A stretch of 64,000 nucleotides of DNA from a virus. Lineage: Duplodnaviria; Caudoviricetes. The translations under genes and the position numbers were made by a program. The notes under the pieces were generated by a model. That model saw only the letters and a program-made list of their open reading frames with translations, was not told where the DNA came from and made no database searches. This document shows, piece after piece, positions 4,272-57,941 of the stretch. The first letter of the stretch is position 1. The number at the start of each line of letters is the position of its first letter. The DNA lies in IMG/VR virus record IMGVR_UViG_3300021400_000369, positions 1 through 64,000 of that record; one strand, written 5' to 3'.

Positions 4272-5525
4272 CTATTCTTCTTCAATGATTTTACTAATAT
4301 GTTTTCCTAATCTTTCAACAACACCTATGACCAATGCGTTACCCATCATGAAATATCTTCTTCTTTCAGTCATGGATTTCGCTTGCACATTTGTCCAATT
4401 ATCAGGAAACATTTGGATTCTTTCAGCTTCCATAGGAGTAAGGGTTCTTAACTTACCTGTTCTAATATCTTTCACTATATGAGTACTTCTGTTCATAGTG
4501 GATTCACTTGTTAATAATGTTCTAGCAGGTCTGTTAAGATAATCAGGGAAAGCCACATTACCTTCTGAGAAGAAATACTTCTCACCATTGGGTTTTGTTC
4601 TCTCTATCTTCTTGCTACCTTTTAGGTATTTCATTCTTTCAATCTTTTCATCTGTTAAGAAATACTTTTCATTAATTTCACCTTTCTCTATGATATCTCC
4701 CAATGTAGTTATTTCATCACAATTTGGTTTTGTCTTAAATGTATAGATATTACCTTTATGCATGAATCCTGAATTCAGGAATTGGAAGATGAAGCGATCG
4801 CTGAGATCAACCAAATCTTTAAACCCTTTTATGCTGTTAACATCTCTCTCAGGTTCAGACTCATCTACCTTTACTGGGAAGCAGGAAGCAAATACTCCAT
4901 CATAGTAGATTATCTCTTCAGCGTTTTTCCGACTTATTTCCTGATAGTATTTTGTTGACTCATGATAAGCAAAAATAAATACTCTTCGTCTTTTTTGAGG
5001 GAATCCATACTCAGCAGCATTGATAACTCTCCATTCCACACCATAACCATTATCCCATAATGTTTTAAGGATTATTCCAAAGTCTCTACCTCTTTGAAAT
5101 GATGGAGATTTAAGTAGCCTGTCCACATTTTCAAGTAATATAAATGGTGGTTGTTTCTTTTCTAAGATTTCAGCAATCTGCCACCAGAGAACTCCTTTCT
5201 TGCCTTCAATTCCTTTTTCATTTGATAATGAACGAGCAACTGAATAGTCCTGACATGGGAAGCCTCCAACTAAAAGAGTGTGATCTGGGATGCTTGTCTT
5301 ATCAATAAGACTAATATCCTCATTCACATGGTTTTCACTTTCTCCGAATCGTTCCACATAGCAATCATAAGCCGCTTGGGTTTTAGTGCTCGGTTCCCAT
5401 TGATTAATCCAAACAAAATCCCAAGTATCATCTTCAACGACTTCATTGTTTTTTAATTCAACCTTATTTAATCCACAACGGAATCCACCAACTCCTGCAA
5501 ATAATTCTACTACTGTCTTATCCAT
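4272..5525 (-). CDS. dcm: DNA (cytosine-5) methyltransferase, M.Sau3AI-like
   Basis: ELFAGVGG (I), GGFPCQDYS (IV), ENV (VI), QKRRRVF (VIII), MGNA (X); NQWEPS, LLKSPSFQRGRDF and PARTLLTSE..NRSTH recall M.Sau3AI; start corrected to the ATG at 5525 (RBS GGTGAT). Confidence 0.92.
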   Translation of the reverse strand: MDKTVVELFAGVGGFRCGLNKVELKNNEVVEDDTWDFVWINQWEPSTKTQAAYDCYVERFGESENHVNEDISLIDKTSIPDHTLLVGGFPCQDYSVARSLSNEKGIEGKKGVLWWQIAEILEKKQPPFILLENVDRLLKSPSFQRGRDFGIILKTLWDNGYGVEWRVINAAEYGFPQKRRRVFIFAYHESTKYYQEISRKNAEEIIYYDGVFASCFPVKVDESEPERDVNSIKGFKDLVDLSDRFIFQFLNSGFMHKGNIYTFKTKPNCDEITTLGDIIEKGEINEKYFLTDEKIERMKYLKGSKKIERTKPNGEKYFFSEGNVAFPDYLNRPARTLLTSESTMNRSTHIVKDIRTGKLRTLTPMEAERIQMFPDNWTNVQAKSMTERRRYFMMGNALVIGVVERLGKHISKIIEEE

Positions 5526-5529
5526 ATTA

Positions 5530-5838
5530 TCACCATTCATTTAATTTAAAACAAATTCTATTCTCGCAATATTCATCAATCTCATATGTGAATATCTTCA
5601 TTCCAAGTTTTTGATTTAATTCTTCAAAATATTTCTCAATTCTTGGTTTGACAATCTTAAATTCTTTCTCTAAATAAGCTTGATATTCATACTCATTATT
5701 AAAATCATCAATTCTTTTAAATTCTATATCATCATTTAATGGTTTATAATCTAATCGGAGGCTATTGTCTCCAACCCATTCAAAACCATATTTTTCATTC
5801 AATTCTTTAAACATTTTTTTTAATTCATCTTTTATCAT
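5530..5838 (-). CDS. Hypothetical protein
   Basis: Start corrected to MIKDEL (RBS GGTGATAAT). Confidence 0.7.
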   Translation of the reverse strand: MIKDELKKMFKELNEKYGFEWVGDNSLRLDYKPLNDDIEFKRIDDFNNEYEYQAYLEKEFKIVKPRIEKYFEELNQKLGMKIFTYEIDEYCENRICFKLNEW

Positions 5839-26579: not shown

Positions 26580-26717
26580 AAGATTCATACAGCAAAAAAA
26601 CACACTAAAATAACTGAAAGATTTTGATTGAATGAATCTTGACGACATAGCACAGAACCAAAGATGGCTACAGCAAACATTAATGAAAAAGCAGGAAACT
26701 TTTCAGAGCCATCTTGG
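26580..26717 (+). ncRNA. Two tandem stem-loops sharing an AAGAU..-UACAGCAAA motif in the leader of the Ro60-like gene
   Basis: AAGATTCA-TACAGCAAA...TGAATCTT (26580-26640) and AAGATGGC-TACAGCAAA...GCCATCTT (26661-26715); the closing stems covary. Confidence 0.6.
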
Positions 26718-26730
26718 AGGTTTCATTATT

Positions 26731-28203
26731 ATGTTAGATGAATTAAAAAAAGAATTGAATACATCAGTAACCGAGAACGGGGCACGAGGCCACGCGTCTT
26801 CCGGGTCTTTGATAGTGGATTTCAACTTCATGGCTTCTTCGATGAGGGCCTGGGGCGCTGATGAGATCAGGGATTATTTCCTTGAGGTGTATCATGATGA
26901 TCCATTGTTGGCGCTCCGGTGGCTTTTTTATGCCCGTGACATCAGGATGGGCATGGGGGAACGCAGGCTTTTCCGCGAATGCTACAGGGCTTTGCCGGTC
27001 CCGGCGGCCGTGGCGAACTTGGCGAATATTCCTTTTTATGGCAGGTGGGATGACCTGGTTTCCTTGTTTGGCGTGATGGGTTCTGCCGTTGATGAGGCTG
27101 TGGTGCGGATTGTTTCCGCTCAGCTTGACTTGGACCTGCTCAGCATGGAACGCGGCGGTCCTGTTTCCTTGCTGGCGAAGTGGATGCCGAGCGAGAACGC
27201 TTCCTCCATTGAATCAAGACGCCTGGCCAGGAAACTGGCTAAGGCTCTGGACCTGTCATTCAAGGAGTACCGCAGGACCCTGTCATCCTTGAGGGGTTAT
27301 ATTGATGTTGTGGAATCAAGGATGTGCAATGGCGACTGGTCCGGGATCGATTATGAGAAAGTGCCTTCAATGGCCAATCTCAGGTATGGCGATGCCTTCA
27401 TGCGCCACGATCCTGCCCGAAGAGCCCAGTACCTTAGCGAGGTTTCCAATGGAAAGGCGGACTTCAACATGTCCGTGGCTTCCCCGGTGGATGTGGTTCA
27501 CAGGTATGTCGGCCGTCACAGAAGTCCTGATGAGCGGGATGATGTTCTTGAACTGGCTTGGAAGAACCTGTCCGATGTGTTCGTGGATGATGTCCTGGTT
27601 GTCGCGGACGGCAGCGGAAGCATGACATGGGCTCTCTCCGGGGTCTTGCCTTTGACTGTCGCGAACAGTCTCGCCTTATACACGGCGGAGCATAATAGTG
27701 GTGAGTTCAGGAATCATTTCATCACATTCAGCTCCCACCCCCGACTCATTAAAATCCCCGAAGACGCCACCCTCTATGAGAAATTGAGGATCATGTCCAG
27801 GTACATGGAATGTTCATCCACCAACATCGAGGCCGTGTTCAACCTCATCCTTGATGCCGCCGTCAATAATGAGATGACTCAGGATGACATGCCCGGATCC
27901 GTTTTGGTCATCTCCGACATGGAGTTCAACCAGGCGGTCTCAGGCGGCCCTGACAAGACACTCTTCGATGAGATTAAAGCCAAGTATGAGCATCATGGGT
28001 TTGTGATGCCCCGCCTGGTCTTCTGGAATGTCAGCAGCCGAACCGGGACAATCCCCGTCCGAACCAACAGCATGGGTGTCGCATTGGTCAGCGGATACTC
28101 CCAGAACACTCTCAAGATGGTCATGAGCGACAAGCTCGACCCGTATGATGTTCTTGTTGAGACATTGATGAGTCCTCGTTATGACCGGGTTGTTCCCGGA
28201 TAA
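26731..28203 (+). CDS. DUF2828-family Ro60/TROVE-like protein with C-terminal VWA domain
   Basis: TENGA, RDIRMGMGER, YGRWDDL, LAKWMPSE, VVADGSGSM (MIDAS), ISDMEF, VFWNV; start corrected to the ATG at 26731 after GGAGG; GC-rich relative to its flanks. Confidence 0.85.
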   Translation: MLDELKKELNTSVTENGARGHASSGSLIVDFNFMASSMRAWGADEIRDYFLEVYHDDPLLALRWLFYARDIRMGMGERRLFRECYRALPVPAAVANLANIPFYGRWDDLVSLFGVMGSAVDEAVVRIVSAQLDLDLLSMERGGPVSLLAKWMPSENASSIESRRLARKLAKALDLSFKEYRRTLSSLRGYIDVVESRMCNGDWSGIDYEKVPSMANLRYGDAFMRHDPARRAQYLSEVSNGKADFNMSVASPVDVVHRYVGRHRSPDERDDVLELAWKNLSDVFVDDVLVVADGSGSMTWALSGVLPLTVANSLALYTAEHNSGEFRNHFITFSSHPRLIKIPEDATLYEKLRIMSRYMECSSTNIEAVFNLILDAAVNNEMTQDDMPGSVLVISDMEFNQAVSGGPDKTLFDEIKAKYEHHGFVMPRLVFWNVSSRTGTIPVRTNSMGVALVSGYSQNTLKMVMSDKLDPYDVLVETLMSPRYDRVVPG

Positions 28204-42418: not shown

Positions 42419-45400
42419 ATGGTTCAAGAAGATATGAATATTAACATGTCCTTTGTGGCAAAGGACATGAGCGGTATTGTAGCGGCTCAGACAAACCTCA
42501 ACCAACTGGTTGGAGTATTCTCCAATGTTGGTGAAGGAATCGCTAGAAATGTCGGAGCTATAGACGCCGCAGTAGCAACCGCAGGGGTTAGCCTCGGAAT
42601 TTTATCAACACAAGCCGCAAGGGCATATGGAGAATTTGAAAGAGGACAGGCTATTGTACAAACCGTTTCAGGTTCAACTAATGCGGAAATGCAGATACTC
42701 GGTCATACAGCTCAACAATTCTCATCAGAATTCAGGATGGGAATAGATGATGTGAACGAAGGTCTGACAACATTAGGCAGAGCCGGTTTGACAGATGTGA
42801 ACAATCAGATAGAAACATTAAGACAAGGATTTTCTTTGGCTAAGATTGAGGGTATGAATTTAGCTACGGCTTTGGAAGAGATTGTTCAAACCACTTCATT
42901 ATTAGGTGGTGACATTCAAAGTAGCGATTTTGGTATGGATACTGAAAAAGTCACCAATATGCTTGTAGGAACATCCTTAAGTGGCCCTTTGAACGTTAAT
43001 GATGTTGTTCAGACCCTGAAATATGTTGGAGGTACCGCGGCAGCCGCAGGAGCGAACTTAAGCAATGAAGACCTATTATACGACCTTATGGGTACTACAT
43101 CAGCTTTCGCTCAAAAAGGTGTAGTTGGTTCAATGGCCGGTACCGCATTAAGAGCCTTCCTGTCCAAACCAGCTACACAGGATAGTTCAGTATGGGAAGC
43201 GTTGAAGGAAATAGGCTTAGAACCGTATAGTCTCTGGGAAGATGGTCAACAGGAAATGAAACCAATCTCAGAACAGATTCGTATCATTCGTCAGGCAATG
43301 AAAGATAATAACAAATCCACAATGGACCAGCTTGAAATATGGGGGAAACTTGTTGGTACAAAGATGGGCCAGCAGATGATGAAGCTTGATGAAAATACGA
43401 TTCAAGAAAGCACCGCGAAAATCCGTGAGAAGGCAAGCGCGGAGACTTTGGCTAATAGGAGCATGCAGAACTTCGCTTCACAACAAGAAGAGATAATGAA
43501 ATCATTGGAAACCATTTGGAGAAATTATGGTAAGACCATAGCTGATGTCTTATCTCCAATACTTGAGATAATGAAGCCAATTGTTGATTTCCTTGCGAAC
43601 GATTCATATGGTAGTAAGTTTGCTATCTGGGGTATTGTCGCTATAGTTAATACTCTTTTAGGCAAGGCACTTGGTTCTATCCGAGAAGTATTGAAGTTTG
43701 TTACAGAATTGGTTTCCAAGGCTCGAGAACAGGTGAGTTTAACAACTCAAGAGTCAGCAACAACAGAAGAATTATTAGCTCAAAATAAAGCATTGACTGG
43801 TGAATTAGAAAAACAGGCTCAGGCGAAACAAAAGATAGCCACATACTCCAATGTTGATGAAACACATATGAGATACCAAACCGGAGGAAACGGTTTTGGA
43901 AAAACCTTATATATGCATCCAGATGCGGTTAACGCATTAACTCCCGCCCAAAGAACTCAAAATGGATTATTATTAAATGAATTACAAGCCCTTAAAGAAG
44001 TTGGGAACACAAATGCCGCCATCAAAGATGAGTTTAAGAATGTTGTTCAGAGTTATTATCAGCAAGAAGTCGCTCCGTTCTTAGCGATGGGAGGAGATAA
44101 AAGTGATTTCTCAGGTTATATTGATGCAAGTGTAATAGATGAGAATCTCCCTAATACAATGAAAATGTTTGGTGGCGATTACAGCCCAGAACTTCAATAT
44201 CACATCCGAAATGAATTAGGTCGACAAATACGCAATGCCGCATTATATGGGAAAACCGATGCGAACGGCAACATTAAAGTTAGATATATCGGCAATATGA
44301 TAGCGGATGCTTTTGGAGGAGCTATATATAAAAGCGGAGACTTTTCCGGAAACATCTTTTCATATGATAAAGGGCTTGGTCAATATGGTGTTTTGAATGC
44401 GAAAACAGGAACATTAGATACTCGTAAGGATTCAACAACAGGATATTTCGGTGTATCAAATTATGGACAATATGAAGACAAACCGGGAAATCCGGGAAAA
44501 GCCGTCGCCCTTATGGATCCAAATAAATTCATATCATCCGATGATGGCATGAATTATAGAAGAACTGTTTTAGATAGGATAAGTCGTGATTTAAGTAACA
44601 CTACTCAGGGTTTAAATGATATTAACAATTCTATCGTTTCCGCAACTAATGTATTTTCTCAGAGCATGCCTCAAAATAATACAGCGCTTCAGACGGATGC
44701 CGCTACGGGAAATTCAAACTCATCATCTGATTATAAGCGTAATTGGGGAGATAAGGTTTCAACGAATTGGGCTAACAATCTGAACCGTGCGGCTGATAAA
44801 TTATACGAAGCGGCAAGAAGATTAAGTAGTGATGATTTATATTATAATCGATTAGATAGAAATCGACGAGAATTCATAGGAAATTCATATGATGCAAATG
44901 GACAAAGAGTGAGCGGTAATGTTAAAATTAATCCAGCGACAAATCAGGTTTATATTAAAGCCGATGATGGAAAGTGGATTAATAAAGGAGCGCAATTCAG
45001 AGGCAAGAAAGATGAAGAGTACGAAGTTTTAGAATACTCTAATTATTCAAAAGATTCTTCATTTGAACAGAGAAAACCTGTTATTGTTAGGGATAGATAT
45101 AATAAAGTATTGCGATATGATTACAATAAGGATGATTATTATCCTGTAACTTTAAATGATACTCGTTCAGAACAAGCCAGATATGCAGCGGAAGCTAATA
45201 GAAGATTATATAACACAAGCAGAAGTGTTAAATATAATAAATTAGATTACGCTGGAAATGAATTTGTTCATTTCCAGGAAAATGATATAGATGAAGACAA
45301 GATCAAGAACCTCGGCTCCGACACTCGTCTGCAATCTCAGGCAACAGGACAAAAAGGACATTATGTCGCCAAGATCAATCCGGAAACAAACGCATTGGGA

Positions 45401-48400
45401 TTAGCTCATGCAATGGAAGATGACAGAGGTTTCCAATGGGTTACATGGAAATGGTACGCTGATAGAGGAAAAGGGTTAAGCAATGAAGAATTATCACCAT
45501 TTGGCTTGTCACATCCTGTGATTAATGGAAAAGAAGATAGAACAGTATTGCAGCATATGGTTGATGGGGTTGCAAAAGATATTGTTACAAATATGGAAAG
45601 AAACCCTGTTGCCGTGAGACAAGCGATAATCAATCAAAGAGATACTTTTGCGGGAGCTCAACGTCCATCAAAACAATATAGAGATTCCATATCAACAGGA
45701 GTGAACGGAATTGATATTGACAAATATTATCCTTATGGATATAGCGACAAATATGACACATATTTAGCTAAGAACAAAGAACAAACACCAAGGGATAATA
45801 CGGTCAATGGATTATTGAATACAATCGTAGATAGCTTAGGCACTATTAAAGGTCATACAAAACTCCTTAATAATATCAAGGGATATCAGGATAATATCAG
45901 TAGTAAAGTCAGCAGTATCTATTATGACTTGAATAATTTTATTAACAGAAACACATACACATCCTTGAATGGAGATCAGAAAAACAATATTGGATTAGAA
46001 TCAGGTAAGGCAGCGTTAGCTAGGGATTTAGGTGTTTATGATGACAACATGTCAGCAATGCGTCTTAATATTGATGAAAGATTAAGAAATATTGAAAATA
46101 CATATCCGTCCACCGGTAGCGGAAGATTCAAAACATATAATGATTCAGACATTCAAAGAGAATACAGTCAATTAATCGGGATCAAAAAAGAATTGGATAA
46201 CGCCGAATATGCTCTAAACGGAAGACCTTTTGGAAATCAGTTTAGGGATAAATTCCTAGCGATTGATACGGAAAACACGGGTCTCGATCCAAGCAAACAT
46301 AGGATGATTCAGGTTGGCGTTCAGAAATTTGAAAACGGAATAGCAACAACAGGTTTTGAGAAGAACATAAATCAGCCTGATGAAATCGCCCGACTTATGG
46401 AGCAAGAACCTGATTCTCCCGCTCTTAGAATGTTGCATAATATTGATGGGCTGAGATCAAATAACACTTTCGCAAATGGAGTTTCAGAACTCGATGCCTT
46501 AGTTGATTTGTTTAATATGTTCAAAGAGGAAGATGTTCTCTCAGGAGCAACTCCTTTAGTCGGTCAAAATATCACTTATGATATGAGTATGTTAAGGGAA
46601 GCCGTGCTTAGGAATGAAGAATTCTTGAAAGCCGCAGGATATGGCATTAATGACTTTAACAATATCAGATTCATAGACACTCAGACAATAGCATCAAGAG
46701 GATTTAATTTCTCAGATAACAAATTAGGCACAATCGCGAGAAACCTTGGCATTGATTTTAATGGAACACAACACACGGCACTTGCTGATGCGGATGTCAC
46801 CGGAAAGTCATTAATTGAAATGTCAAACATTATTGATGCCGACATACCTCGTGATACATTGCAACATATTATTAATATAGAGAATCTTTTAAGGAGACAA
46901 TTTGGAGGAACAAGACAAAGATTAAACTCTAACTCACAACAGTCATCAATAGGAGGCGAATCTTCCACAATAAATAATCCAGCTTCAGGCTTTGAAGACG
47001 AAACACTTATCCCCAATGAAAATAACGATTCTCAAAAAACTCGTAGAGGATTTCTTCGTTTTTCATTTAGAGATGGTTGGAGAAGGATTGCTGATGGTTC
47101 TACAGAATATTTACGTTCCCCAACGGGTGATAAATATCATCGTGCATTTGGAGAATCTGATTGGTTTGATGAAAATAATGAACGCGTTTCTACTATTTTA
47201 CCTCATAAGGAATTTATGCAATTAGAGGGACAGGCTCTTGAGGATGCTATTGCATATCAGAATACGGTCATCCCTAAACATGAGGAATATAATAAATTAA
47301 TGAGTCAACGTGAGCAATTGTGGAAACAATTTGAAGAAGCGAGAGACATTCATTATGCGGCTGGATTACATGGAGATGTTGAAACTTATGAAGCTTATGG
47401 TCAAACCGCAACCGTACTTCGAAATAAAGTAGAAGAAATTGATGATCAATTATATGAAATAATGCCGTTTTTAGATATTGATGAGGCAGAAGAACGCAGA
47501 TTAGAGTATGTTGGACAAAGAAAAGAGCTATTAGATCAGATTTCTGACTTGGAAAGTGATTTAGCGGTTAATGAAGGTAGACCTATTCCAAAAACGGAAC
47601 GTAGACCAAAGCCTGGAAGTAAATGGCGTTATGAAGACGCTAATCAAATCGCTAAAAACACACTTGACGAAGCTATTGAATCAGCGAAAAAAGAAGCGAT
47701 TACTTTTATGGGAACGAAGGAGTTTCAGGAACGTTTCCCAACAGAAGTTATTCCAGATAATTATATGAACGAACCCGGTAGGAATAATTTCAGAAAACCT
47801 AGGGCAGGCAGTAAGAATTATGAAAAACGTCTTGAAAAATATGAAACAAGAGTAAGAAATTATGAAAATAAGAGAGATGTTCTTGCGGAACAATTTGGAT
47901 ATTTAACAGACCTTCGTAATAGTCCTGCTTATAATGTCTTTGATGAGAAAGGGGAACTTGATGATTATTTATTAACAAATTCAACAAGCAAGAGTTTTGG
48001 TCCCGGATCAAGAAGCGGTAAAAAACTTTTAAATGATATTTGGAGAATAAACACAAGAAACAAAGAGAAGATTGAAGTCTCCAATGGGTATATAGAGATT
48101 GAAAGAGACGCCGCCGAAATCGAACAGGAAACAAGAGAAATCAGAGAAAAGAGTGAAAGGATAAAGGCAAAATTAGCAGCTAAAAAAGAACAACTGGCTC
48201 TCATTGAAGCGAAAATTGATAAAGCAGATCAAATGTCAATATACCATGAGAATGCCGCTTTCGATCCAAGAACTGATATCTTTAATCTTGATGATATCAG
48301 CAGGAGAACTGATGATACCCTTAATGTCATCGCTAAATATCTGCAAGGACTTGGATATGATATGACACTTGGAATGGTTGGAGATGATATTGTCAAAGCC

Positions 48401-51400
48401 ACAGTTCTCGGAAGTCTTGAAGACATGCCTTTGGTTTTACCCGAAGAGGTACAGAAAATCAGACAAGGTGCGTTGCCTGAACAAGTTCTCAGCAAGGATA
48501 TAATCGATGCAAGAATGTTGGATTTCACACCAAACGCTGGACCTATTACGGGTGTAGAGGCTGCTCAATTAGCAATGAACCAGATTACTCAATTAATTAT
48601 TGATAGTGGTAAGCACGAACATCTCGGTCAAGCTATGAACCCAATACAAATCATTGATAATATTTTTAGAGGAACAACTCCTAATCCATATACATTGATT
48701 TCAATGAAGGGAGGGTTTAACAATGAGGAACAGGCTAGGGCTTTTGCTCAGATGATTAATCCAGTTTTCTTGAAAGATGTCATGAGTGGCATGATTGATC
48801 GTGATAATTGGACATTGGACCTTGATCCTGACAGACTTCAATACTTTGGATTAACCCCTGATATGGTATTTGAGGAATTGCAGCATAGTTTCGGCAACAT
48901 TTCAATGTCACTCTCAGATAACCAGATAAAATTCAACCCTACCAATGATACAGATAAGCATCAAATAAGAAATTGGATAAGCGAAGCTCAAATTAATGGA
49001 ATTTCCGGAATCAAACCTATTGATTTTGATGGTCATATATATAAACATGATGTTGAAGGACAGCCTGAAGAGTGGCGTATTCTCACTCGGGGTAGTAATG
49101 TTGGTTTCTTAGATAGCATCCTAGGAACAGATGAATATAAAGACGCATTTGACTTCATTACAACTGATTTCAGAGATGTGGAAGCTACTCGAGGAGTCGA
49201 AGCTGCCAGAGGGGTGATAACATCTCAGTTAAAAGCAACATTACAACGTCTGGGGCTTAATATTTCAGATGATATTATTAAAGCTATTACTTATATGATG
49301 ACGCAATCAGGCAAAGTTATTTCTGTTGGTGATATTGTTCATCAAAGAAACAATCCTTTGGAGAGAGCGGCTTATGAAAATAGTATGAGAGTAATGTATG
49401 ATGCTGCCCTGCATGGGGAAACAGCTCATACCACCCCTACTGTCAATACCATTATCGGACAAGGTAGCGAACCTTTATTAGAAACATTGGATGCGGATAC
49501 AGCGGAGAGGATTATTCATGAAGAACACAGTTCTGATTACATCAAGACATTAGTTGATGAAAACTATGTTGGAGATCCTGGAGATATTGAGAAAATTTTG
49601 AAAAGTCAACGGGATGAGTATAATACAATGTTGGCTAAGGATACCCGTGAGAATCCACAACGGGCCAGGGTTGTTGCGGAGCAATCAAATCCTATTCCTC
49701 CTGCCGCTTTTAAGGATGCAAGAAGTCTTCAGTTATTACAGATGCTGGCTGCTGAGTCACTTAATAAGCAATATGAGATAATGAATGGTACACAGGGAGC
49801 ATTAGCTGATCTGGATAAACGCAGACAATTATTAATGGAAAAGAAAAATGCTTTGGCGGCGAAAATTGAAAGCGATGCTCAAATTGATGAAAATGATAGG
49901 ATCCAGTTGGAAGAACTGGAATCTCGGATCAAAGGTATTGACGCTGCAACCGCAGATATCAGACAAGGAAAAGCCGCTTTTAGTTATGCCGAATTGAACA
50001 GGTCTGCTAGTGAAACATTGAACCCTAACCCTCTTTACGAAGAAGATCTAGCTGTGATCAGGCAAAGTCTTCAGGAACGTGTTGATAATGGCAAAATGGC
50101 TCAATCAACAATGGATTATATTTTATCAGGAGAAGGAGAACAAAGGGGTCCGTCAGCATGGGATAGTGCTGGAATCCTTAAAGAAGAAAGTATTGAAACA
50201 ATGGCGTCAAAGGTTCGAGAATTACCTCCTAATGAGGTTTTCGAGGGAGTTGAGGATCTTTTTGAAGAGTTAAGAAGAAACTCAATCAATGATTATGACG
50301 CTTATCAATTTATTAATTGGATTGGCAAACAATTCGGAATGGAGTTAGATGGAAATGGTGTTGCTGATCCGACAAAAATTGTTGGTGGATTACGCAGCAA
50401 TGTTGGAGCGAAGGGTTTTCATGGAATGGGAGCTGTGCCAATTAGAATGGCAGGCATAATGCAGGTTATGGAAGCTCTTAGGGATTCTGACGCCAGCTTG
50501 CCTGAGGGAGCTATTCCAATGCCTCGTCTTGAAAAGACACAAGGCAACCTCAGCAACCCTATTTATAATATGACCGAGGGTTTGACTAATGAGGTTATGG
50601 CTGCGAAAGTTGTGGCCGACACATACCGTGTCACTCATGCCCGTATGGAAGATTTATTGTATAGTACAAGCATTATAGCTCGAACTGATGGAAGAACGGA
50701 TTTAAGATATCAAACAGAAGAACTTCAAAAATTGAATGACGAATTTGACGAGTTATTTAAAATCGATATAGACGGCAGAAAACGAAGTTTCTTTGGTTTG
50801 GATAATGAAGACTGGGCTGATCCGGCAATTGTTGAAGAATTCAACAAGCGAGTTAAGGAAAGAGAAGAATTCATTCAAAAATATTATGAACGAATGATCG
50901 CATTCCGAGAACAAATCAAGGAAGAAGATGCCGGAATCATCAGAGAACAAGAGAAAGCTATTCATGCGAATAGCGAACTCGGGTACTATCACACTTATGA
51001 TGAAGAAGGAAATTATCTTGGCCTTACTCCTACAATCAATAGGGATGGCGAATTCAGAGATATTGACAGAGAAAGAAAGACAATTCGTGCGTTAAAGGAA
51101 AGATATCCTAATATGCCTGAACTTGATGAACCAAAAATAACAACAATAGGGGATGTCACTCCTTCATTTAGTCAGGGATCGCTCCTTAATGATGAAGTTG
51201 AGAAAGGAGTATTCACCATTCCAGAACCAAATCAAGTCGAAAACATGGCTAAAACAATAGAGGGATTAAGTGATCGCAATAAGGCTCAACAAGAGAAATC
51301 CCAGGCTTATTATCTAGACAGAATTGTCAATGGTACATTAAGAGAACAACAAGAAGCCTACTCTCGTTTCTATGCAAAGAATTATGATGAGCTAATCAAC

Positions 51401-54400
51401 TGGTTCAGAGCATTCCATGTTGAAGATGATGTCATAAACAAATTCATATCAGAAAAAGGAATTCTTCATGACAATCTAAATATCGCCAGATTATTAAGTC
51501 AATTCGATGATGCTATAGACCAGGGTATCGCTCCGGTTCACACCGTCAAAGCACTCATTGATGAATTGGACGAGACGAGAAATCCTTATCGTAGAATGAA
51601 AATTCATGAAGGGCGTGGAGACACCCCTGAAAGCGTAAGAAGCTACCCATTCAAAATGCTGGCGGAAAATGAACTGTTAAGCGCACAAAAAGGATTCTTT
51701 GATCATGACAAGTTTATAGAATGGTGGAAAGAAGCTAGTGTAGAAGAACAGGAATTGTTTGGACGCAATATCAAACAAGGTGTTTATGCTCGTCAGGCCG
51801 ATACTCCAAATTTACCAGGTTTTGATGATTTCCTAACCGAAGAAGGTCAGAAGCAATTCGGAACAATAACTAATATGTTGAATTTTGAGGAGAAATTGGA
51901 GGAAATTAGGCAAATAGAATCTCAACAATTATCTGCTTTAGAAAGAATATTGAGCGAGGGAAGATTCATAAATCCTGATGATATGAATGAGATTAATGAT
52001 CAGTACTTCAATAGTGAAGAGTATAAGGCTTCTGAACGTGGTAAAAAATTACGAGAAGCAAGTGGATCATATAATTATGAAGGTGGAATGTTCTTTGGAA
52101 CAGGCAGCGAAATCATGGACGATTTAGCCGATGAATTTGCTTACAATATTAAGGAAGCCGATATGACACCATTTTGGTGGTCAGATTTGCCTGATAAAGA
52201 AGTGCCTAAAAATAAATCAGCTCCATCTTATAAAGGTATGATTACTGCCGGTGGTCAAATATATCCTGTGACAGTTTCTCCTGAACAAATTGAAAAAATT
52301 ACAAACAAAGTTACAGAAACAAGTCGTCGCAACCAGGCTAAAGCAGATGTTGACCGAGGATTTAATGCATCAAATGGCATGTTCTTTGGTACCGGAGTTG
52401 TTGATGAAAAAACATTGAAAGAAAGACTAAAAACTTCAGATTCAAAGCCAACAGAAGGTATACTTAGCCGTATTAAAAATTGGATGACAACACCAGGGGA
52501 ACTCAATCTCAAGGGACTTTCAACAGGATTTAAAGGATTAGGTTCAGCCGCTTTATCTGTTGCAAACATGATGGGTGGACCAATGATGGCCGCAATGACT
52601 ATCTTCCAAGGTGTTATGCAAGCTTATTCCGCAGTAGTTGAAAAGGAATCCGAAAGAATTACAAAAATCCAAACAGAGACATCCGAGGCTCAGGAGAGAT
52701 ATTCACAAGCTGAATCAAATTTCCTAACCAGCAAAGAACGAGCTGATGAAAACTTCTCCAATGTTAGTGAAGATGACAAGGAAACAGCAATCGAAGAAGC
52801 TTTGAAAGAAGGTCGGGATAAAGATGTTACAATGCAGGATCTCAGACTCTTAACGGATGAGAATCTCGAGTTAACTGAATCAGAACAGCTCAATAAAGAT
52901 TTAACCGCTCTTGAAGCAAATACTCGATTATTATATACATCACAATTGCAAATGACCGCGGCATTAAGAAATGAAGCTAATGTTGAAGATGATACCGGAC
53001 AATTAGGACATTACGGAACACAAGCTGATTTCACGGAATGGTATGAAGGTAGCGGTATTAAGAATTCTAAAGATGAATATGGTTTGGGAGATATACTTGA
53101 CATTAATGCTTGGAAAACAAAATTTGGACTCACAGATAAAGGAGAGGAATATCTTGAAGATATTGCTCAATCATCTGAAAATGGATTGCAGTTTACTACT
53201 CGTATTAAAAACGCTGAGGATTTGGAAACAGATTTTGAAAAGTTAGCGGCGTCATTTGATAAAAGGAATGTTGGCGGAAATGATATATCAACAATCTTTG
53301 GAGGAAATAAGGGATTATATCCTCAATATAATAGTTATTGGAATGATATTGGTACTCACAATGGAGGATACTCAGCAACTCAATTAGCGAAACTTGGAAA
53401 ACAATATGATAAACAATTAAACCGCTTTGAACGTAAGAACTTTAGATTTGAATTCAAAAATGGTCGATTAGTTCTAAAAAATATTCAAAACATTGATAAG
53501 AAATTCGCTAATCTTGGTCAGCGTTTAGGTATTAGTAAAATCGCGGCCCAACAATTAGTAATGTTACATACTTTAAACGATTTATATCAAGTTGCTGAAA
53601 CACAAGTTAAACCTGAATTAATTAATCAAACACAAGGATTATACTCTCAATTAGCTACCAGCAGCGGTATTCACTCTAATACTGGATCAAGTGTTAGTGT
53701 TGAGCAGGCAATGAACCAAGGTTTAGCTGTTATTAGTCAACAATTAAGTCAAGTTATTGTCAGTACAGCGAATGAAGCAGCTGTTGATTCCTATAACGCC
53801 GTATCTGATACTCCGGTAGAGAGTGTTGGAGAATTAAATAAAATAATTAAAGATGGAAATAAAAGCAGCGATGAGTATAAGAATGCGGTAGAAGCAATGG
53901 ATACCAAATATAAAACTCAAGCATATCAGGCGAAATATTATGAAAGATTGAACGCCGGAGATACTCCAGCCGAAGCTATGAAGAAAGCTCAAAAAAGTTC
54001 TGAAGAATATTTGAAAAAATATGGAGTAGAAAATGGTTCATATTGGAAAACCCATCAAAAGTATACTGATATAGCTAAGGAATATGAGAGTCCAACTATT
54101 GGAAATTTCATGAAAAGACTTGCATCAAATATTCCTGGTTTTCCATCAAGTGGTTATTCAGATTATAACGCAACAGATATCATGAAACTTAATGACGAGG
54201 TTGTTAAGAATAATCCAGAAGTTATTAAATACTTGATGAACTTAACAAACACAATCAATGAAAGCAATATGGATGCTGAAGATGCTGCTGATGATGAGAC
54301 AGGTGGTTCCGGAAGAGGCGGTGGCAAAGATTATGACAACAACAACAGGCAGCGTTATGTTCAATTAGCCATCTGTAACAAGAAAGCCATACCAAAACTC

Positions 54401-54649
54401 AATGTGAACCTGTTCAAAAAAGCTCCGAGCTTCACGGTCATGAATAAGAACTTCAAGCTCCGTGACATCAAAATCAACACAGCTGACAAGGCAAAGAATA
54501 TTGAGAGCGCGGTTAAGAACGCCATCATTGATGTTCAGGAAAGATCCGATCCTAAGATCATACAGGATGAGGAAGCGGAGTACGACCCAGTCGGAGCTAC
54601 CGATGGGGACAACCTCCCTACCGGAACAACCCAGACAAACAACAACTAA
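42419..54649 (+). CDS. Giant tape measure protein (4076 aa) with embedded DEDDh exonuclease, Rpo1C(A'')-like and possible TFB-like domains
   Basis: N-terminal TP901-type TMP motifs (LGRAG, LKYVGGTA, GSMAGTALR); exonuclease at 46253-46822; Rpo1C-like region at 48539-49462. Confidence 0.9.
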   Translation: MVQEDMNINMSFVAKDMSGIVAAQTNLNQLVGVFSNVGEGIARNVGAIDAAVATAGVSLGILSTQAARAYGEFERGQAIVQTVSGSTNAEMQILGHTAQQFSSEFRMGIDDVNEGLTTLGRAGLTDVNNQIETLRQGFSLAKIEGMNLATALEEIVQTTSLLGGDIQSSDFGMDTEKVTNMLVGTSLSGPLNVNDVVQTLKYVGGTAAAAGANLSNEDLLYDLMGTTSAFAQKGVVGSMAGTALRAFLSKPATQDSSVWEALKEIGLEPYSLWEDGQQEMKPISEQIRIIRQAMKDNNKSTMDQLEIWGKLVGTKMGQQMMKLDENTIQESTAKIREKASAETLANRSMQNFASQQEEIMKSLETIWRNYGKTIADVLSPILEIMKPIVDFLANDSYGSKFAIWGIVAIVNTLLGKALGSIREVLKFVTELVSKAREQVSLTTQESATTEELLAQNKALTGELEKQAQAKQKIATYSNVDETHMRYQTGGNGFGKTLYMHPDAVNALTPAQRTQNGLLLNELQALKEVGNTNAAIKDEFKNVVQSYYQQEVAPFLAMGGDKSDFSGYIDASVIDENLPNTMKMFGGDYSPELQYHIRNELGRQIRNAALYGKTDANGNIKVRYIGNMIADAFGGAIYKSGDFSGNIFSYDKGLGQYGVLNAKTGTLDTRKDSTTGYFGVSNYGQYEDKPGNPGKAVALMDPNKFISSDDGMNYRRTVLDRISRDLSNTTQGLNDINNSIVSATNVFSQSMPQNNTALQTDAATGNSNSSSDYKRNWGDKVSTNWANNLNRAADKLYEAARRLSSDDLYYNRLDRNRREFIGNSYDANGQRVSGNVKINPATNQVYIKADDGKWINKGAQFRGKKDEEYEVLEYSNYSKDSSFEQRKPVIVRDRYNKVLRYDYNKDDYYPVTLNDTRSEQARYAAEANRRLYNTSRSVKYNKLDYAGNEFVHFQENDIDEDKIKNLGSDTRLQSQATGQKGHYVAKINPETNALGLAHAMEDDRGFQWVTWKWYADRGKGLSNEELSPFGLSHPVINGKEDRTVLQHMVDGVAKDIVTNMERNPVAVRQAIINQRDTFAGAQRPSKQYRDSISTGVNGIDIDKYYPYGYSDKYDTYLAKNKEQTPRDNTVNGLLNTIVDSLGTIKGHTKLLNNIKGYQDNISSKVSSIYYDLNNFINRNTYTSLNGDQKNNIGLESGKAALARDLGVYDDNMSAMRLNIDERLRNIENTYPSTGSGRFKTYNDSDIQREYSQLIGIKKELDNAEYALNGRPFGNQFRDKFLAIDTENTGLDPSKHRMIQVGVQKFENGIATTGFEKNINQPDEIARLMEQEPDSPALRMLHNIDGLRSNNTFANGVSELDALVDLFNMFKEEDVLSGATPLVGQNITYDMSMLREAVLRNEEFLKAAGYGINDFNNIRFIDTQTIASRGFNFSDNKLGTIARNLGIDFNGTQHTALADADVTGKSLIEMSNIIDADIPRDTLQHIINIENLLRRQFGGTRQRLNSNSQQSSIGGESSTINNPASGFEDETLIPNENNDSQKTRRGFLRFSFRDGWRRIADGSTEYLRSPTGDKYHRAFGESDWFDENNERVSTILPHKEFMQLEGQALEDAIAYQNTVIPKHEEYNKLMSQREQLWKQFEEARDIHYAAGLHGDVETYEAYGQTATVLRNKVEEIDDQLYEIMPFLDIDEAEERRLEYVGQRKELLDQISDLESDLAVNEGRPIPKTERRPKPGSKWRYEDANQIAKNTLDEAIESAKKEAITFMGTKEFQERFPTEVIPDNYMNEPGRNNFRKPRAGSKNYEKRLEKYETRVRNYENKRDVLAEQFGYLTDLRNSPAYNVFDEKGELDDYLLTNSTSKSFGPGSRSGKKLLNDIWRINTRNKEKIEVSNGYIEIERDAAEIEQETREIREKSERIKAKLAAKKEQLALIEAKIDKADQMSIYHENAAFDPRTDIFNLDDISRRTDDTLNVIAKYLQGLGYDMTLGMVGDDIVKATVLGSLEDMPLVLPEEVQKIRQGALPEQVLSKDIIDARMLDFTPNAGPITGVEAAQLAMNQITQLIIDSGKHEHLGQAMNPIQIIDNIFRGTTPNPYTLISMKGGFNNEEQARAFAQMINPVFLKDVMSGMIDRDNWTLDLDPDRLQYFGLTPDMVFEELQHSFGNISMSLSDNQIKFNPTNDTDKHQIRNWISEAQINGISGIKPIDFDGHIYKHDVEGQPEEWRILTRGSNVGFLDSILGTDEYKDAFDFITTDFRDVEATRGVEAARGVITSQLKATLQRLGLNISDDIIKAITYMMTQSGKVISVGDIVHQRNNPLERAAYENSMRVMYDAALHGETAHTTPTVNTIIGQGSEPLLETLDADTAERIIHEEHSSDYIKTLVDENYVGDPGDIEKILKSQRDEYNTMLAKDTRENPQRARVVAEQSNPIPPAAFKDARSLQLLQMLAAESLNKQYEIMNGTQGALADLDKRRQLLMEKKNALAAKIESDAQIDENDRIQLEELESRIKGIDAATADIRQGKAAFSYAELNRSASETLNPNPLYEEDLAVIRQSLQERVDNGKMAQSTMDYILSGEGEQRGPSAWDSAGILKEESIETMASKVRELPPNEVFEGVEDLFEELRRNSINDYDAYQFINWIGKQFGMELDGNGVADPTKIVGGLRSNVGAKGFHGMGAVPIRMAGIMQVMEALRDSDASLPEGAIPMPRLEKTQGNLSNPIYNMTEGLTNEVMAAKVVADTYRVTHARMEDLLYSTSIIARTDGRTDLRYQTEELQKLNDEFDELFKIDIDGRKRSFFGLDNEDWADPAIVEEFNKRVKEREEFIQKYYERMIAFREQIKEEDAGIIREQEKAIHANSELGYYHTYDEEGNYLGLTPTINRDGEFRDIDRERKTIRALKERYPNMPELDEPKITTIGDVTPSFSQGSLLNDEVEKGVFTIPEPNQVENMAKTIEGLSDRNKAQQEKSQAYYLDRIVNGTLREQQEAYSRFYAKNYDELINWFRAFHVEDDVINKFISEKGILHDNLNIARLLSQFDDAIDQGIAPVHTVKALIDELDETRNPYRRMKIHEGRGDTPESVRSYPFKMLAENELLSAQKGFFDHDKFIEWWKEASVEEQELFGRNIKQGVYARQADTPNLPGFDDFLTEEGQKQFGTITNMLNFEEKLEEIRQIESQQLSALERILSEGRFINPDDMNEINDQYFNSEEYKASERGKKLREASGSYNYEGGMFFGTGSEIMDDLADEFAYNIKEADMTPFWWSDLPDKEVPKNKSAPSYKGMITAGGQIYPVTVSPEQIEKITNKVTETSRRNQAKADVDRGFNASNGMFFGTGVVDEKTLKERLKTSDSKPTEGILSRIKNWMTTPGELNLKGLSTGFKGLGSAALSVANMMGGPMMAAMTIFQGVMQAYSAVVEKESERITKIQTETSEAQERYSQAESNFLTSKERADENFSNVSEDDKETAIEEALKEGRDKDVTMQDLRLLTDENLELTESEQLNKDLTALEANTRLLYTSQLQMTAALRNEANVEDDTGQLGHYGTQADFTEWYEGSGIKNSKDEYGLGDILDINAWKTKFGLTDKGEEYLEDIAQSSENGLQFTTRIKNAEDLETDFEKLAASFDKRNVGGNDISTIFGGNKGLYPQYNSYWNDIGTHNGGYSATQLAKLGKQYDKQLNRFERKNFRFEFKNGRLVLKNIQNIDKKFANLGQRLGISKIAAQQLVMLHTLNDLYQVAETQVKPELINQTQGLYSQLATSSGIHSNTGSSVSVEQAMNQGLAVISQQLSQVIVSTANEAAVDSYNAVSDTPVESVGELNKIIKDGNKSSDEYKNAVEAMDTKYKTQAYQAKYYERLNAGDTPAEAMKKAQKSSEEYLKKYGVENGSYWKTHQKYTDIAKEYESPTIGNFMKRLASNIPGFPSSGYSDYNATDIMKLNDEVVKNNPEVIKYLMNLTNTINESNMDAEDAADDETGGSGRGGGKDYDNNNRQRYVQLAICNKKAIPKLNVNLFKKAPSFTVMNKNFKLRDIKINTADKAKNIESAVKNAIIDVQERSDPKIIQDEEAEYDPVGATDGDNLPTGTTQTNNN
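46253..46822 (+). other. DEDDh (DnaQ-like) 3'-5' exonuclease domain within the TMP
   Basis: AIDTENTGL, VGQNITYD, FIDT, HTALADA; all catalytic residues present. Confidence 0.85.
48539..49462 (+). other. RNA polymerase subunit Rpo1C (A'')-like domain within the TMP
   Basis: Collinear motifs GVEAAQ..TQ, INGISGI, EWRILTRGSN, GVEAAR..I, MTQSG, LERAAYE, NTIIGQ. Confidence 0.8.
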
Positions 54650-55359: not shown

Positions 55360-56514
55360 ATGTCAACTAAAAGATATGATTACAACGGACTTTCAGAAGT
55401 GTTGAGAGTAGAAACATACCCTGATGGCAAGATCCATGATTACATCACAGCCTTCGACCTTGACTGCGACAAGAACGACATCGTGACAACAGTAGTTCTG
55501 CACATGCCTTATGATCCAGACTTGATGGCTTATTGGGAGCCAGGTCGGATGTCATGCGCCATTTATGGCGGAACATATGACCGGGAGAAGCTGTTCTCCG
55601 GGAGAGTCAGGGAGATCATGCACACGGGGTATGAGATACAGGTCACATGTGAGAATATCGGATGGAAGCTCAAGCAGTTGTGTCCGGCTTCCGTCCTGGA
55701 TTATCTTGATGGCAAACCAGTCAAGGATGTTGTATACACATTATTAGGAATGGCCAATGTCAAATACCATGTGAATCTGGATGGAATAACCGACCTGAAC
55801 AAGTATGTATATGAAAGCGGAGGCTCGGTCGCCATAGGAGGCACAACGGTCGAGTCAATTCCCGATCTTAATCAGGTAATCAAGAACATGAAAGGAAGCG
55901 ATATAGACCAGGCTGTGGCCGATGCGAAATATACAAAGGAAAACACGGAAGTCAGCAGGGAATTCAATAACAGAGAACTCTACAAACTGACTCAGGTTGT
56001 AGGGTCAAGCAATTATTATTACCCTTCATCAATCCGCAACTCATGGACGATCAATAACAATGTTAATTTGAAAACGGCTTCAAGGATAACATCAAAGAAT
56101 GATCTGGAGAATCTGTCGGAATATTATGTGACCGGGATAGACAAGAAATCAAGCGCCTACAAGAGCCTTCAGAAGAAGATGAAATCCGAAGCCAAGGCGA
56201 AGGCGAAAGCCGCCGCGAAGGCTTCACAGGAATCAGAATCATCAGGAGATTCATCATCTGATGTGCCGTCATCCGATTCAACATCCTCTGAAACAACACC
56301 GGCTCCAAAGCCAAAGGCGTACAGCAAAGCCTACTACAAACAGATATGGGAAGCCTGGTACGGCAATGCGACATCCCATAGCGGTACGGGCAAGCAGGCA
56401 TGGATAGACAGGGCTTATAAGAAACAAACATATTACGGCACTCCCGCCCAGAACAGGAGAAGAATTCAAAGAACAATTGAAAGTCAAAGATACGTAAGCG
56501 GGGTTCACCTATGA
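55360..56514 (+). CDS. Baseplate hub N-half-like protein (paralog of 57954-59204)
   Basis: Shared P.D.DLM.YWEP, LF.GR.RE...GYE, N.GWK, IPDL. Confidence 0.6.
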   Translation: MSTKRYDYNGLSEVLRVETYPDGKIHDYITAFDLDCDKNDIVTTVVLHMPYDPDLMAYWEPGRMSCAIYGGTYDREKLFSGRVREIMHTGYEIQVTCENIGWKLKQLCPASVLDYLDGKPVKDVVYTLLGMANVKYHVNLDGITDLNKYVYESGGSVAIGGTTVESIPDLNQVIKNMKGSDIDQAVADAKYTKENTEVSREFNNRELYKLTQVVGSSNYYYPSSIRNSWTINNNVNLKTASRITSKNDLENLSEYYVTGIDKKSSAYKSLQKKMKSEAKAKAKAAAKASQESESSGDSSSDVPSSDSTSSETTPAPKPKAYSKAYYKQIWEAWYGNATSHSGTGKQAWIDRAYKKQTYYGTPAQNRRRIQRTIESQRYVSGVHL

Positions 56515-57941
56515 CACAGGTTTTCGATTCAATATATACCCATTTGAGATGGGCTTATCCAACATACAGCAAGAAACAATTATACAGCTTCTCAAAAAGA
56601 CTGGCCGGAGCCCGGTGCGCATGGAGAAACATAGCCCTCATAACTAATGAGATGGGCGGTCCTTTCTCCCATTATAAGAACCAGAATGCTCTGATAAGGG
56701 ATATCATGAGGATAAAAGGATGTGAAACGTCCTCCTCCGATGACCTTGAAGAACCTGACGCTACTGATGAGGAGTCATTGTTAAGCGGTGATTCAGAATC
56801 ATCAGGAGGTGGTTCTTCCGGAAGCGGCTCATCCGATTCCGATGATTCCTCAGCGGACAAGGCTGATAATGAAGATTTAACCTTTGATGATGTTCTTCAC
56901 AGCATAGCATCAGCGATTGACGCTCATTATTACATAGTTAATGATACAGTATATTTTGTATCCTTTAACACATTATTCGCCGGAGGGTACAAGGAAACCG
57001 GCTTTCCTGACAAGCCGATAGTGATTGATTATTGGATGCAGGAAGATGGAAGTCTTGATGTTGATGTCAATCAGGCGGGGATGATAAATACTGTCATCCT
57101 GCATTACAGGAATGGAACTGTCAAAGTATGCAATGAAGACCTTGTTAATATATATGGCGAGGTTTCTGCAACCTATTCCGACAAGACCCTTTCATATACT
57201 CAAGCGAGGGTGAAGGCAGAAGCATACTTGAGTGCGAACATTAGAGATTTTAACATGACCGTTCAAGTATCTGCACTCTATAGTGGTAAGCTTGCGGTCG
57301 GACAATACATAAAATTAAGAAACCCCCTCACAATGACGGAAAACCTTTACTACATATACGGCTTGTCAGTAAACTGGAACGCTGGTGAAAAAACATTCGT
57401 GGCGGACCTCGACCTGAGGTACGGCCCCGAAAACCCCGACAATCCGGAAGTCCCGGAAACCGGTGGCGGATATTATACTAATAACAGCAGCGGAAGCAGC
57501 GGCGGTGGTGGCCAGATGGCTGGAAACCCATCAGGCACCGTGGCTGATTTCGCCAAAAAGATAGTAGGCAACGCCACCACTAATGATGAAAAAGTCCAGA
57601 AAATATGGGCCTGGTGGAAATCAAATATGCATTATGGACATTATGAATGTAGTAGACAAAGTACAGAACAAGTTCTTAGCAGCAAATCCGCTAATTGTAC
57701 AGATACAGCCAAGGCATTATGTGATTTATTCACAGCGGTTGGCGTTCCAAACAAACTCCATCATTGCTTCTCGGTTACATTCACAACAGGACATACCGCG
57801 GGACACTATTACCCAGAAGCCAAATATGGAAACGGATGGGTAATTGTAGATGGCGTAAGCCGTTATGCCGGATGGGGCGGAAAGAACATGGTTTCAAAAT
57901 CAAATTGCAAAGAACTTTCAAGTGTTTCGGAAGTTTGCTAG
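56511..57941 (+). CDS. Baseplate hub C-half-like protein with transglutaminase-like (PeiW-type) C-terminal domain
   Basis: NTV...Y.NG.VK...DLV.IYGE core; ANCTD...GHYY...WVIVD Cys-His-Asp triad. Confidence 0.7.
   Translation: MTQVFDSIYTHLRWAYPTYSKKQLYSFSKRLAGARCAWRNIALITNEMGGPFSHYKNQNALIRDIMRIKGCETSSSDDLEEPDATDEESLLSGDSESSGGGSSGSGSSDSDDSSADKADNEDLTFDDVLHSIASAIDAHYYIVNDTVYFVSFNTLFAGGYKETGFPDKPIVIDYWMQEDGSLDVDVNQAGMINTVILHYRNGTVKVCNEDLVNIYGEVSATYSDKTLSYTQARVKAEAYLSANIRDFNMTVQVSALYSGKLAVGQYIKLRNPLTMTENLYYIYGLSVNWNAGEKTFVADLDLRYGPENPDNPEVPETGGGYYTNNSSGSSGGGGQMAGNPSGTVADFAKKIVGNATTNDEKVQKIWAWWKSNMHYGHYECSRQSTEQVLSSKSANCTDTAKALCDLFTAVGVPNKLHHCFSVTFTTGHTAGHYYPEAKYGNGWVIVDGVSRYAGWGGKNMVSKSNCKELSSVSEVC

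Follow-up and report, generated by a model that had tools for sequence, protein, structure and literature searches.

What is a copy of an archaeal RNA polymerase (RNAP) subunit doing in the middle of a viral tail protein? The question is raised by a 64,000-nucleotide stretch of DNA from a tailed virus (Caudoviricetes), hereafter the window, which represents the first 64 kb of the 97,018-base linear IMG/VR record IMGVR_UViG_3300021400_000369 (66% complete according to CheckV). The window encodes a tape measure protein (TMP) of 4076 amino acids, P0001, within which an earlier note, made from the sequence alone, had placed a homologue of archaeal Rpo1C (A''). The coordinates given for it were exact (nt 48539-49462 are TMP residues 2041-2348) and the peptide strings quoted in its support are present in the translation. 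The explanation that we prefer, tentatively and as something slightly short of probable, is that this domain is a host-derived Rpo1C paralogue carried in the cargo centre of the TMP as an effector that travels in the virion and interacts with the transcription machinery of the host.

The assignment of the open reading frame (ORF) as a TMP was found to be sound. Its N-terminus matches TIGR01760 (E 2e-24, 86.3 bits against a cut-off of 28.8) and PF10145 (E 1.9e-21, 77.3 bits against a cut-off of 33.2), and the gene lies between head and baseplate genes. Upstream are the genes for TerL (large terminase), the portal and the prohead protease, along with a weak Phage_capsid match (16.5 bits, under the 24.2 cut-off); downstream, and partly outside the window, are those for a transglutaminase-like protein and a Baseplate_J-like protein. 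Judged by this N-terminal domain, the head genes upstream and the baseplate genes downstream, P0001 is the tape measure protein of a tailed virus. Its coding frame is unbroken across 4076 codons (12.2 kb).

The claimed homology of the internal domain to Rpo1C/A'' was borne out by profile searches, by matches to chains of solved structures and by Foldseek. The profile TIGR02389 (RNA_pol_rpoA2) matched TMP residues 2084-2348 over profile positions 91-353 of 367 (E 5.1e-28, 98.1 bits), and a six-frame search of the record with the same profile hit the same domain with E 7.4e-31. Pfam RNA_pol_Rpb1_5 (PF04998) remains below its gathering cut-off of 28.5 bits when the whole TMP is searched (26.7 bits) and exceeds it with an excised piece of 500 amino acids (31.2 bits), and is contained in the precomputed Pfam lists of both P0001 and P0002, a second TMP described below. 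Searching PDB sequences with phmmer yielded 13 matches at E ≤ 0.01, every one of them an RNAP largest-subunit chain, the best seven being archaeal Rpo1C/A'' chains (E 9.6e-16 to 5e-12). Among 1.84 billion cluster representatives, 159 proteins were matched at E ≤ 1e-3 and 11 at E ≤ 1e-10; at E ≤ 1e-30 the query's own cluster stood alone, and the best foreign match was 31% identical. All ten phmmer matches that were scanned are cellular Rpo1C proteins, with TIGR02389 scores of 297-515 bits (four of the ten above the cut-off). Alignment with 30 cellular Rpo1C sequences using MAFFT pushes the match N-terminally to the AAQ...TQ motif that holds the trigger loop, and by this alignment the TMP domain covers essentially the whole of A'', from the trigger-loop block to the C-terminal ...IIGQ block. 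The conserved blocks follow one another in the order expected of Rpo1C, and about 310 residues are recognised. These comparisons confirm that the domain is genuinely homologous to Rpo1C, far beyond chance.

We regard the domain as a highly diverged paralogue of Rpo1C and not as an orthologue, because its TIGR02389 scores (98.1 bits for the whole protein, 102 bits for the excised piece) do not reach the equivalog cut-off of 420.65 bits, because it is at most 31% identical to cellular Rpo1C and because the trigger-loop motif has been lost. In the alignment with the 30 cellular proteins, the trigger-loop consensus falls on ...AAQLAMNQITQLIIDS in the TMP, followed by a four-column gap; the S, E and P of the motif have become L, N and Q, and its TFHxAG part lies in the gap. 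The degeneracy of the trigger loop had thus been described correctly. Cellular GLPR is AMNP in the TMP, the IGRxG block has a two-residue gap and the terminal PxGTG is missing, while the consensus residue is retained in 22 of the 40 columns that are at least 90% conserved among the cellular sequences. With its trigger-loop motif lost, the domain should therefore be unable to support catalysis in the way of a normal subunit. The earlier note had also remarked that no NADFDGD motif was seen, which is irrelevant, as the catalytic aspartates of archaeal RNAP reside in Rpo1N and not in Rpo1C (PMC2675907, partial text). A D.D.D pattern matched the TMP twice (DIDED at 956 and DLDPD at 2134), both times outside an RNAP context. 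No match to Rpo1N (TIGR02390) or Rpo2 (PF00562) was obtained in the 97-kb record at its completeness of 66%, and the domain is best read as a lone, catalytically disabled subunit copy rather than a piece of a hidden polymerase.

An AlphaFold2 model of residues 2000-2400, for which the input alignment consisted of the window segment and the 30 cellular Rpo1C sequences, had a mean pLDDT of 72.2 and a pTM of 0.61; means over 10-residue blocks were 75-93 across model residues 81-310, and pLDDT fell below 50 at the tip of the trigger loop. Foldseek returned 282 matches to PDB structures at E ≤ 0.001, the best seven of which were archaeal Rpo1C chains with TM-scores of approximately 0.50-0.55 (top matches 8orq_C and 8cro_C, E 6e-19, 380 aligned columns). 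The domain is accordingly modelled with the Rpo1C fold. A complex was also predicted between the domain and residues 330-850 of Swiss-Prot RPO1N_METTH, a Methanothermobacter stand-in for the host protein, together with three controls. The pair with Rpo1N reached 0.37 and the best control 0.00, weak support for binding that possibly reflects memory of solved archaeal RNAP complexes in the predictor; across the prediction runs, contact agreement was at least 46% and the pLDDT of the partner at least 67. For calibration, 58 of 80 solved complexes and 2 of 110 mismatched pairs attain the mark set for such predictions; at scores of 0.60 or below, only seven of the 80 solved complexes attain it, as do both of the passing mismatches. 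With a pI of 4.5-4.8 and a net charge of -15 to -17 across 276-277 residues, the domain is strongly acidic; of 12 Rpo1C regions from Methanobrevibacter, 11 are less so, and the median pI of the other homologues is 6.4.

The fusion is not confined to a single assembly. The earlier note had proposed looking for the same insert in related TMPs, and five further TMPs from other assemblies carry it. One of these, the 4120-amino-acid P0002 obtained in a length-matched search, has PF10145, PF00929 and PF04998 alike and is 78% identical to P0001 in the domain; its 90% cluster also includes proteins of 4115, 4073, 4133 and 3304 amino acids from JGI, ENA and Logan assemblies. The Rpo1C-like domain is present in all six aligned TMPs (P0001, P0002 and these four), a 364-amino-acid fragment of the cluster, P0155, being outside this count. 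We further compared public contigs with window positions 47000-51000. Independent bovine-gut contigs bridge the 5' border of the domain (X2 record 11, 47988-48602; X4 record 21, 48336-48985) and its 3' border (X2 record 13, 49425-50096). X2 and X4 stem from one study and X6 from another, independent of X1, in which one contig spans all of 47000-51000 and which is possibly the window's own source; the uncovered bins in X4 and X6 carry no evidential weight. Given the TMPs from other assemblies and the contigs across both borders, a chimeric assembly at the domain borders, which the earlier note had named as a refuting outcome, is effectively refuted.

How widely is the domain distributed? A metagenome scan with P0002 detected nine related loci. 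The closest, L004, encodes a TMP of 3625 amino acids that is 71% identical to P0001 over N-terminal residues 1-874, 30% over the exonuclease region and 36% over the C-terminal 920 residues, with no alignable part between residues 1503 and 3156; it possesses the DEDD exonuclease and has no Rpo1C match. Five shorter relative TMPs (1627-1990 amino acids) are without the exonuclease and without the Rpo1C-like domain, and match P0002 up to about residue 4115. This domain scan covered six of the nine loci, the ORFs of the other three (L005, L007 and L011) being truncated. Taken over L004-L014 and P0001, the TMPs of these rumen viruses range from 1627 to 4076 amino acids, with conserved ends and unrelated centres, which would mean that tail length is not simply scaled to TMP length here, unless the tails differ 2.5-fold. 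A relative of 45% completeness, G002 (55,346 bases), gave no TIGR02389 match, a tblastn search with TMP residues 2000-2400 against 50,697 GenBank phage records gave none either, and a scan of viral contigs with the domain alone returned no relative, near-identical records possibly having been excluded by the search. Present in one small clade and absent from its relatives, the Rpo1C-like domain is best described as an accessory module of the variable TMP centre, alongside the DEDD exonuclease. Within the domain-bearing family, identity to P0001 is 95-100% in most 100-residue windows, and five other alleles are mutually 92-100% identical across residues 2101-2400. Differences among three alleles are rarer at columns that are at least 70% conserved in cellular Rpo1C (11 of 93 columns variable, against 54 of 201; odds ratio 0.37, p 0.004), and this avoidance of conserved columns favours selection on the fold.

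As regards the host, the record encodes a PMBR protein with the pseudomurein-binding repeat PF09373 (E 3.5e-14; 69888-70958, outside the window). Among 120 homologues listed for it, the sole species-named one belongs to Methanobrevibacter olleyae (40% identity), and the stretch or close variants of it are present in runs labelled bovine or sheep gut. On the strength of these three observations the host is a rumen pseudomurein methanogen, most likely a Methanobrevibacter, in keeping with the methanogen host assumed previously. Scans of GTDB genomes with the TMP family alignment and with the M. olleyae PMBR protein (P0280) produced no confirmed match. In the RNA runs X19-X22, 0.00-0.07 of the sampled words were present, a range that is uninformative on expression.

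The initial list of matches to the domain, which holds one representative per 50% cluster, was headed by DPANN archaea. After Methanobrevibacter sequences had been added, the best phmmer scores were those of P0404 (81.5 bits), P0402 (81.1 bits) and P0374 (75.5 bits; named as uncultured Methanobrevibacter), and the best DPANN match, P0003, scored 73.8 bits. P0010, the relatives of which were the sequences added, was recognised as the Rpo1C of a Methanobrevibacter and shares 84% identity with that of M. olleyae. In trees of 77 and 83 rows, no supported neighbour emerged for the TMP clade, the stem of which is very long (approx. 3.3 plus 1.1 changes per column). The 83-row tree omitted matches covering fewer than 235 query positions as well as P0074, P0111, P0036, P0063 and P0005 (long branches or fragment). 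Forcing the TMP together with 12 Methanobrevibacter rows gave a log-likelihood 2.31 above that of the free tree (p-AU 0.568), and the AU test neither rejects nor proves such a clade. Of the comparison with host Rpo1C that the earlier note had called for, the best scores thus fall to Methanobrevibacter, but the tree leaves the origin undecided. Our best guess for the source of the domain is the host lineage, Methanobrevibacter. We also observed that Methanobrevibacter Rpo1C occurs in two length classes, of about 385-390 and about 557 amino acids (P0010 and P0329 compared with P0374 and P0421), the longer of which has an N-terminal extension of approximately 190 residues ahead of the TIGR02389 match.

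What, then, might the domain do? During ejection the TMP leaves the tail before the DNA, and a virion holds few copies of it. Extruded ahead of the DNA at infection, modules of the TMP could act before viral expression, reaching the membrane or the cytoplasm of the infected cell in advance of any viral gene product. The Rpo1C-like module would then operate as an effector made in advance, inside the host cytoplasm or at its edge. Surfaces of Rpo1C evolved for contacts with Rpo1N, Rpo2 and small subunits and for the docking of factors; as inherited by the module, they may bind partners of the Rpo1N/Rpo2 type or such docking factors, and host transcription would be disturbed or recruited where the genome enters. 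Surplus TMP produced late in infection may also have a part to play.

Several points weigh against an effector of host transcription. Because there are few TMP copies per virion, the host RNAP pool could hardly be poisoned stoichiometrically, and the role would have to be local or catalytic; a stoichiometric decoy, or global titration of RNAP by virion TMP, is therefore unlikely, and a local role at the entry site more likely. Cytoplasmic ejection, cleavage and binding of host proteins by the domain are predictions, as is the decoy or replacement role proposed in the earlier note. The domain occurs in none of the six related TMPs scanned (1627-3625 amino acids) and must be dispensable for the virus group, and a complete relative of 121,120 bp with terminal repeats has no TIGR02389 match anywhere. 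Eighteen of the 40 most conserved Rpo1C positions are altered, and the AlphaFold model is biased toward the Rpo1C fold by the cellular Rpo1C sequences in its input alignment. Identity to P0001 drops to 79, 71 and 61-62 of 94 over residues 2101-2400, the fastest-diverging long part of the TMP family (61-79% identity), and this fast divergence could result from relaxed constraint rather than from an arms race.

The more specific version of the effector reading is that of a subunit mimic delivered by the virion, in which a copy of Rpo1C tethered at the entry site and devoid of a trigger loop would capture Rpo1N/Rpo2-type partners or docking factors, giving a crippled or reprogrammed polymerase or holding host machinery at the incoming genome, in either case in advance of viral gene expression. 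Stated in this detail, it is possible but somewhat unlikely.

A purely structural exaptation, in which the captured Rpo1C fold would be only a folding unit, a spacer or a plug in the tail or in a trans-envelope channel, unrelated to host transcription, is likewise a rather unlikely alternative, though one to be taken seriously. It would suit the loss of the catalytic trigger-loop motif and a purifying selection that seems to act on fold-determining columns and not on known functional motifs; the TMP centres of the group vary freely in content and length, and the score of 0.37 makes a weak case for Rpo1N binding. Yet relatives manage without the domain, a globular fold of approximately 310 amino acids would be an odd spacer for a narrow tail tube, and the neighbouring nucleic-acid enzyme domain points to cargo with intracellular targets.

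We consider it improbable that the domain is a decaying passenger, that is, a fragment of host rpo1C caught by illegitimate recombination and drifting since, its frame kept open because a stop codon would cut off the essential C-terminal module. Such a passenger could well be the most divergent long segment of the TMP family, be limited to one narrow clade (its own cluster being alone beyond 1e-30 among the 1.84 billion representatives), be missing from relatives and sit on so long a stem (approx. 3.3 plus 1.1 changes per column). However, despite such divergence the fold is still recognised over about 310 residues, interrupted only briefly where the trigger-loop and IGRxG motifs are gapped. 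The model is confident in its core, and the allele differences spare conserved core columns. In-frame deletions, moreover, would be tolerated in a passenger, and none has removed the domain from any of the six aligned members.

It is quite doubtful that the domain serves as a DNA pilot, with the jaw and cleft surfaces of RNAP reused to grip the leading end of the genome and to draw it in behind the TMP. The idea fits a TMP that travels ahead of the DNA during ejection, and a nearby nuclease domain, which suggests dealings with nucleic acid. The strongly acidic character of the domain (pI 4.5-4.8), however, disfavours a stand-alone DNA-gripping role, and the DNA channel of RNAP would be made by several subunits jointly and not by A'' alone, even if the Rpo1C jaw has been implicated in binding downstream DNA (PMC2675907, in the part available). 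An assembly chimera or a mis-called gene, for which it could be said that the window is one metagenomic contig and that the sole run holding the whole stretch in one piece is perhaps its own source, is effectively refuted by five other domain-bearing TMPs from separate collections, by independent contigs bridging both borders and by a single unbroken frame of 12.2 kb.

The reading of the domain as a virion-borne effector can be set against several known systems. With archaeal Rpo1C/A'' the domain shares the fold and the order of conserved blocks, from AAQ...TQ to ...IIGQ, but the cellular protein is a free subunit whereas the domain is embedded in a virion protein of 4076 amino acids and at most 31% identical. 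TMPs with cell-wall-degrading or resuscitation-factor-like motifs exist. Like other TMPs with embedded domains, P0001 combines conserved N- and C-terminal modules with inserted globular domains; in place of envelope-degrading enzymes, however, it has a DEDD exonuclease and a homologue of a subunit that serves transcription in the cytoplasm, and its host is archaeal. A further parallel is offered by the polyvalent proteins of phages and conjugative elements, which are very large and multidomain, combine domains that probably act on nucleic-acid or transcription systems of the host, and have prototypes that are injected with DNA; those above 1000 amino acids are almost all bacterial and scarce in archaea (PMC5512222, partial text). 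P0001 resembles them in having several unrelated effector-type domains (the DEDD exonuclease and the Rpo1C-like domain) in 4076 amino acids and, being a TMP, may itself be packaged and delivered with the DNA. It is unlike them in that its scaffold is a TMP and its cargo an RNAP-subunit domain, and the word 'tape' does not occur in the text of PMC5512222. TMP-related ejected effectors have been reported for contractile injection systems (PMC13277306, partial text).

Among viral proteins directed at RNAP, ORF145/RIP of Acidianus two-tailed virus is an archaeal viral inhibitor that directly targets the host enzyme (PMC5123050 and PMC8448823, both in part), and it would be a functional analogue of the TMP domain if the effector reading is true. 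ORF145/RIP, by contrast, is small, is made after infection and binds inside the DNA channel, and is neither a homologue of an RNAP subunit nor part of a tail protein. When the model was compared with viral models using Foldseek, 37 matches at E ≤ 0.001 were obtained; of the 29 that carry a name, 28 are RNAP subunits encoded by large DNA viruses of eukaryotes, and prokaryotic viruses account for none. Such viral subunits belong to polymerases that are complete and active, whereas the TMP domain is a single disabled subunit on its own. According to the available text of PMC5569661, archaeal viruses are thought to encode no RNAP parts and to rely entirely on the RNAP of the host. A fusion of TMP and Rpo1C, of which the earlier note was aware of no description, was not found described in full-text searches of the literature; supplementary tables (e.g. 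the gene annotations of PMC13465236) might list the Pfam hit. Plausibly, the known kind to which this system belongs is that of virion-borne multidomain effectors, and what is new is the TMP scaffold, the archaeal virus and a copy of a core RNAP subunit as cargo.

Hardly any viral factors are known to contact archaeal RNAP. If it is a true effector, a core subunit copied into a virion protein in disabled form would represent a new route of transcription interference and, if the subunit mimic is real, the first case in which the effector injected by a virus is a structural imitation of a core RNAP subunit. The domain could also become a natural probe of RNAP assembly, A'' being a separate polypeptide in archaea. 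In rumen methanogen viruses, a group of practical interest for methane control, domains directed to the cytoplasm would have the TMP centre as their cargo bay. Even if merely structural, the domain would be a clean, datable case of a host informational protein recruited into a virion.

Table 1. Position and supporting evidence of the tape measure protein gene and of the modules within its product
Feature	Residues	Position in window	Strand	Evidence
Tape measure protein (TMP) gene, P0001	4076 aa	42419..54649	+	TIGR01760 and PF10145 at N-terminus, tail-module position
Conserved TMP N-terminal module	65-410	42611..43648	+	TIGR01760 (aa 65-410); PF10145 (aa 97-300)
Hydrophobic segment	401-419	43619..43675	+	Kyte-Doolittle 19-residue mean of 1.65, the protein's maximum
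DEDD-type 3'-5' exonuclease domain	1276-1471	46244..46831	+	Pfam RNase_T, NCBIfam and PDB matches
Rpo1C/A''-like domain	2041-2348	48539..49462	+	TIGR02389, PDB, alignment, AlphaFold/Foldseek
Degenerate trigger-loop region	2041-2068	48539..48622	+	Alignment to cellular Rpo1C (30 sequences); model residues 63-73 with pLDDT <50
Approximate equivalent of Rpo1C jaw	~2117-2207	48767..49039	+	phmmer offset to Sulfolobus A'' chains; approximate borders
Conserved TMP C-terminal module	3156-4076	51884..54646	+	36% identity to L004 TMP C-terminus

Other parts of the TMP listed in Table 1 deserve brief comment. The hydrophobic segment is a possible membrane-inserting helix. The exonuclease domain was recognised by RNase_T (PF00929) over residues 1281-1462 (E 6.2e-8, 33.8 bits, above the cut-off of 24), by NCBIfam models of 3'-5' exonucleases (down to E 2e-7) and by a PDB oligoribonuclease (E 0.0085). 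Its acidic and histidine motifs, as we presume them to be placed, seem intact by eye. The jaw equivalent was located using the jaw range 147-236 (PMC2675907, partial text). A search of the ESM Atlas with residues 2401-3160 gave a best score of 0.78, under the lead threshold of 0.9. A second hypervariable stretch of the TMP lies at residues 3201-3400 (52016-52618), where four relatives are identical to P0001 at 38-40 of 87-92 positions; P0153, unlike these four, is 96-97% identical there, a pattern that suggests mosaic exchange between TMP alleles.

Elsewhere in the window, the gene at 26632-28203 (+) encodes a protein of 523 amino acids with DUF2828 and DUF7788, matching phrog_850 'RNA-binding protein' with E 4.7e-127; it coincides with the GC peak of the window (0.466, with flanking values of about 0.33-0.39) and is situated where genes switch from the minus to the plus strand. 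A C-5 cytosine DNA methylase (PF00145, E 3.7e-65) is encoded at 4272-5540 (-) and probably serves anti-restriction self-methylation. In the tail region, a 476-amino-acid protein with a transglutaminase-like core (E 2.2e-15) is encoded at 56511-57941 (+) and represents a candidate cysteine protease that may cleave the cell wall of the pseudomurein host. Outside the window, the record encodes a baseplate-region protein of 905 amino acids with a staphylococcal-nuclease domain (74539-77256) and the anaerobic ribonucleotide reductase NrdD (93323-95353).

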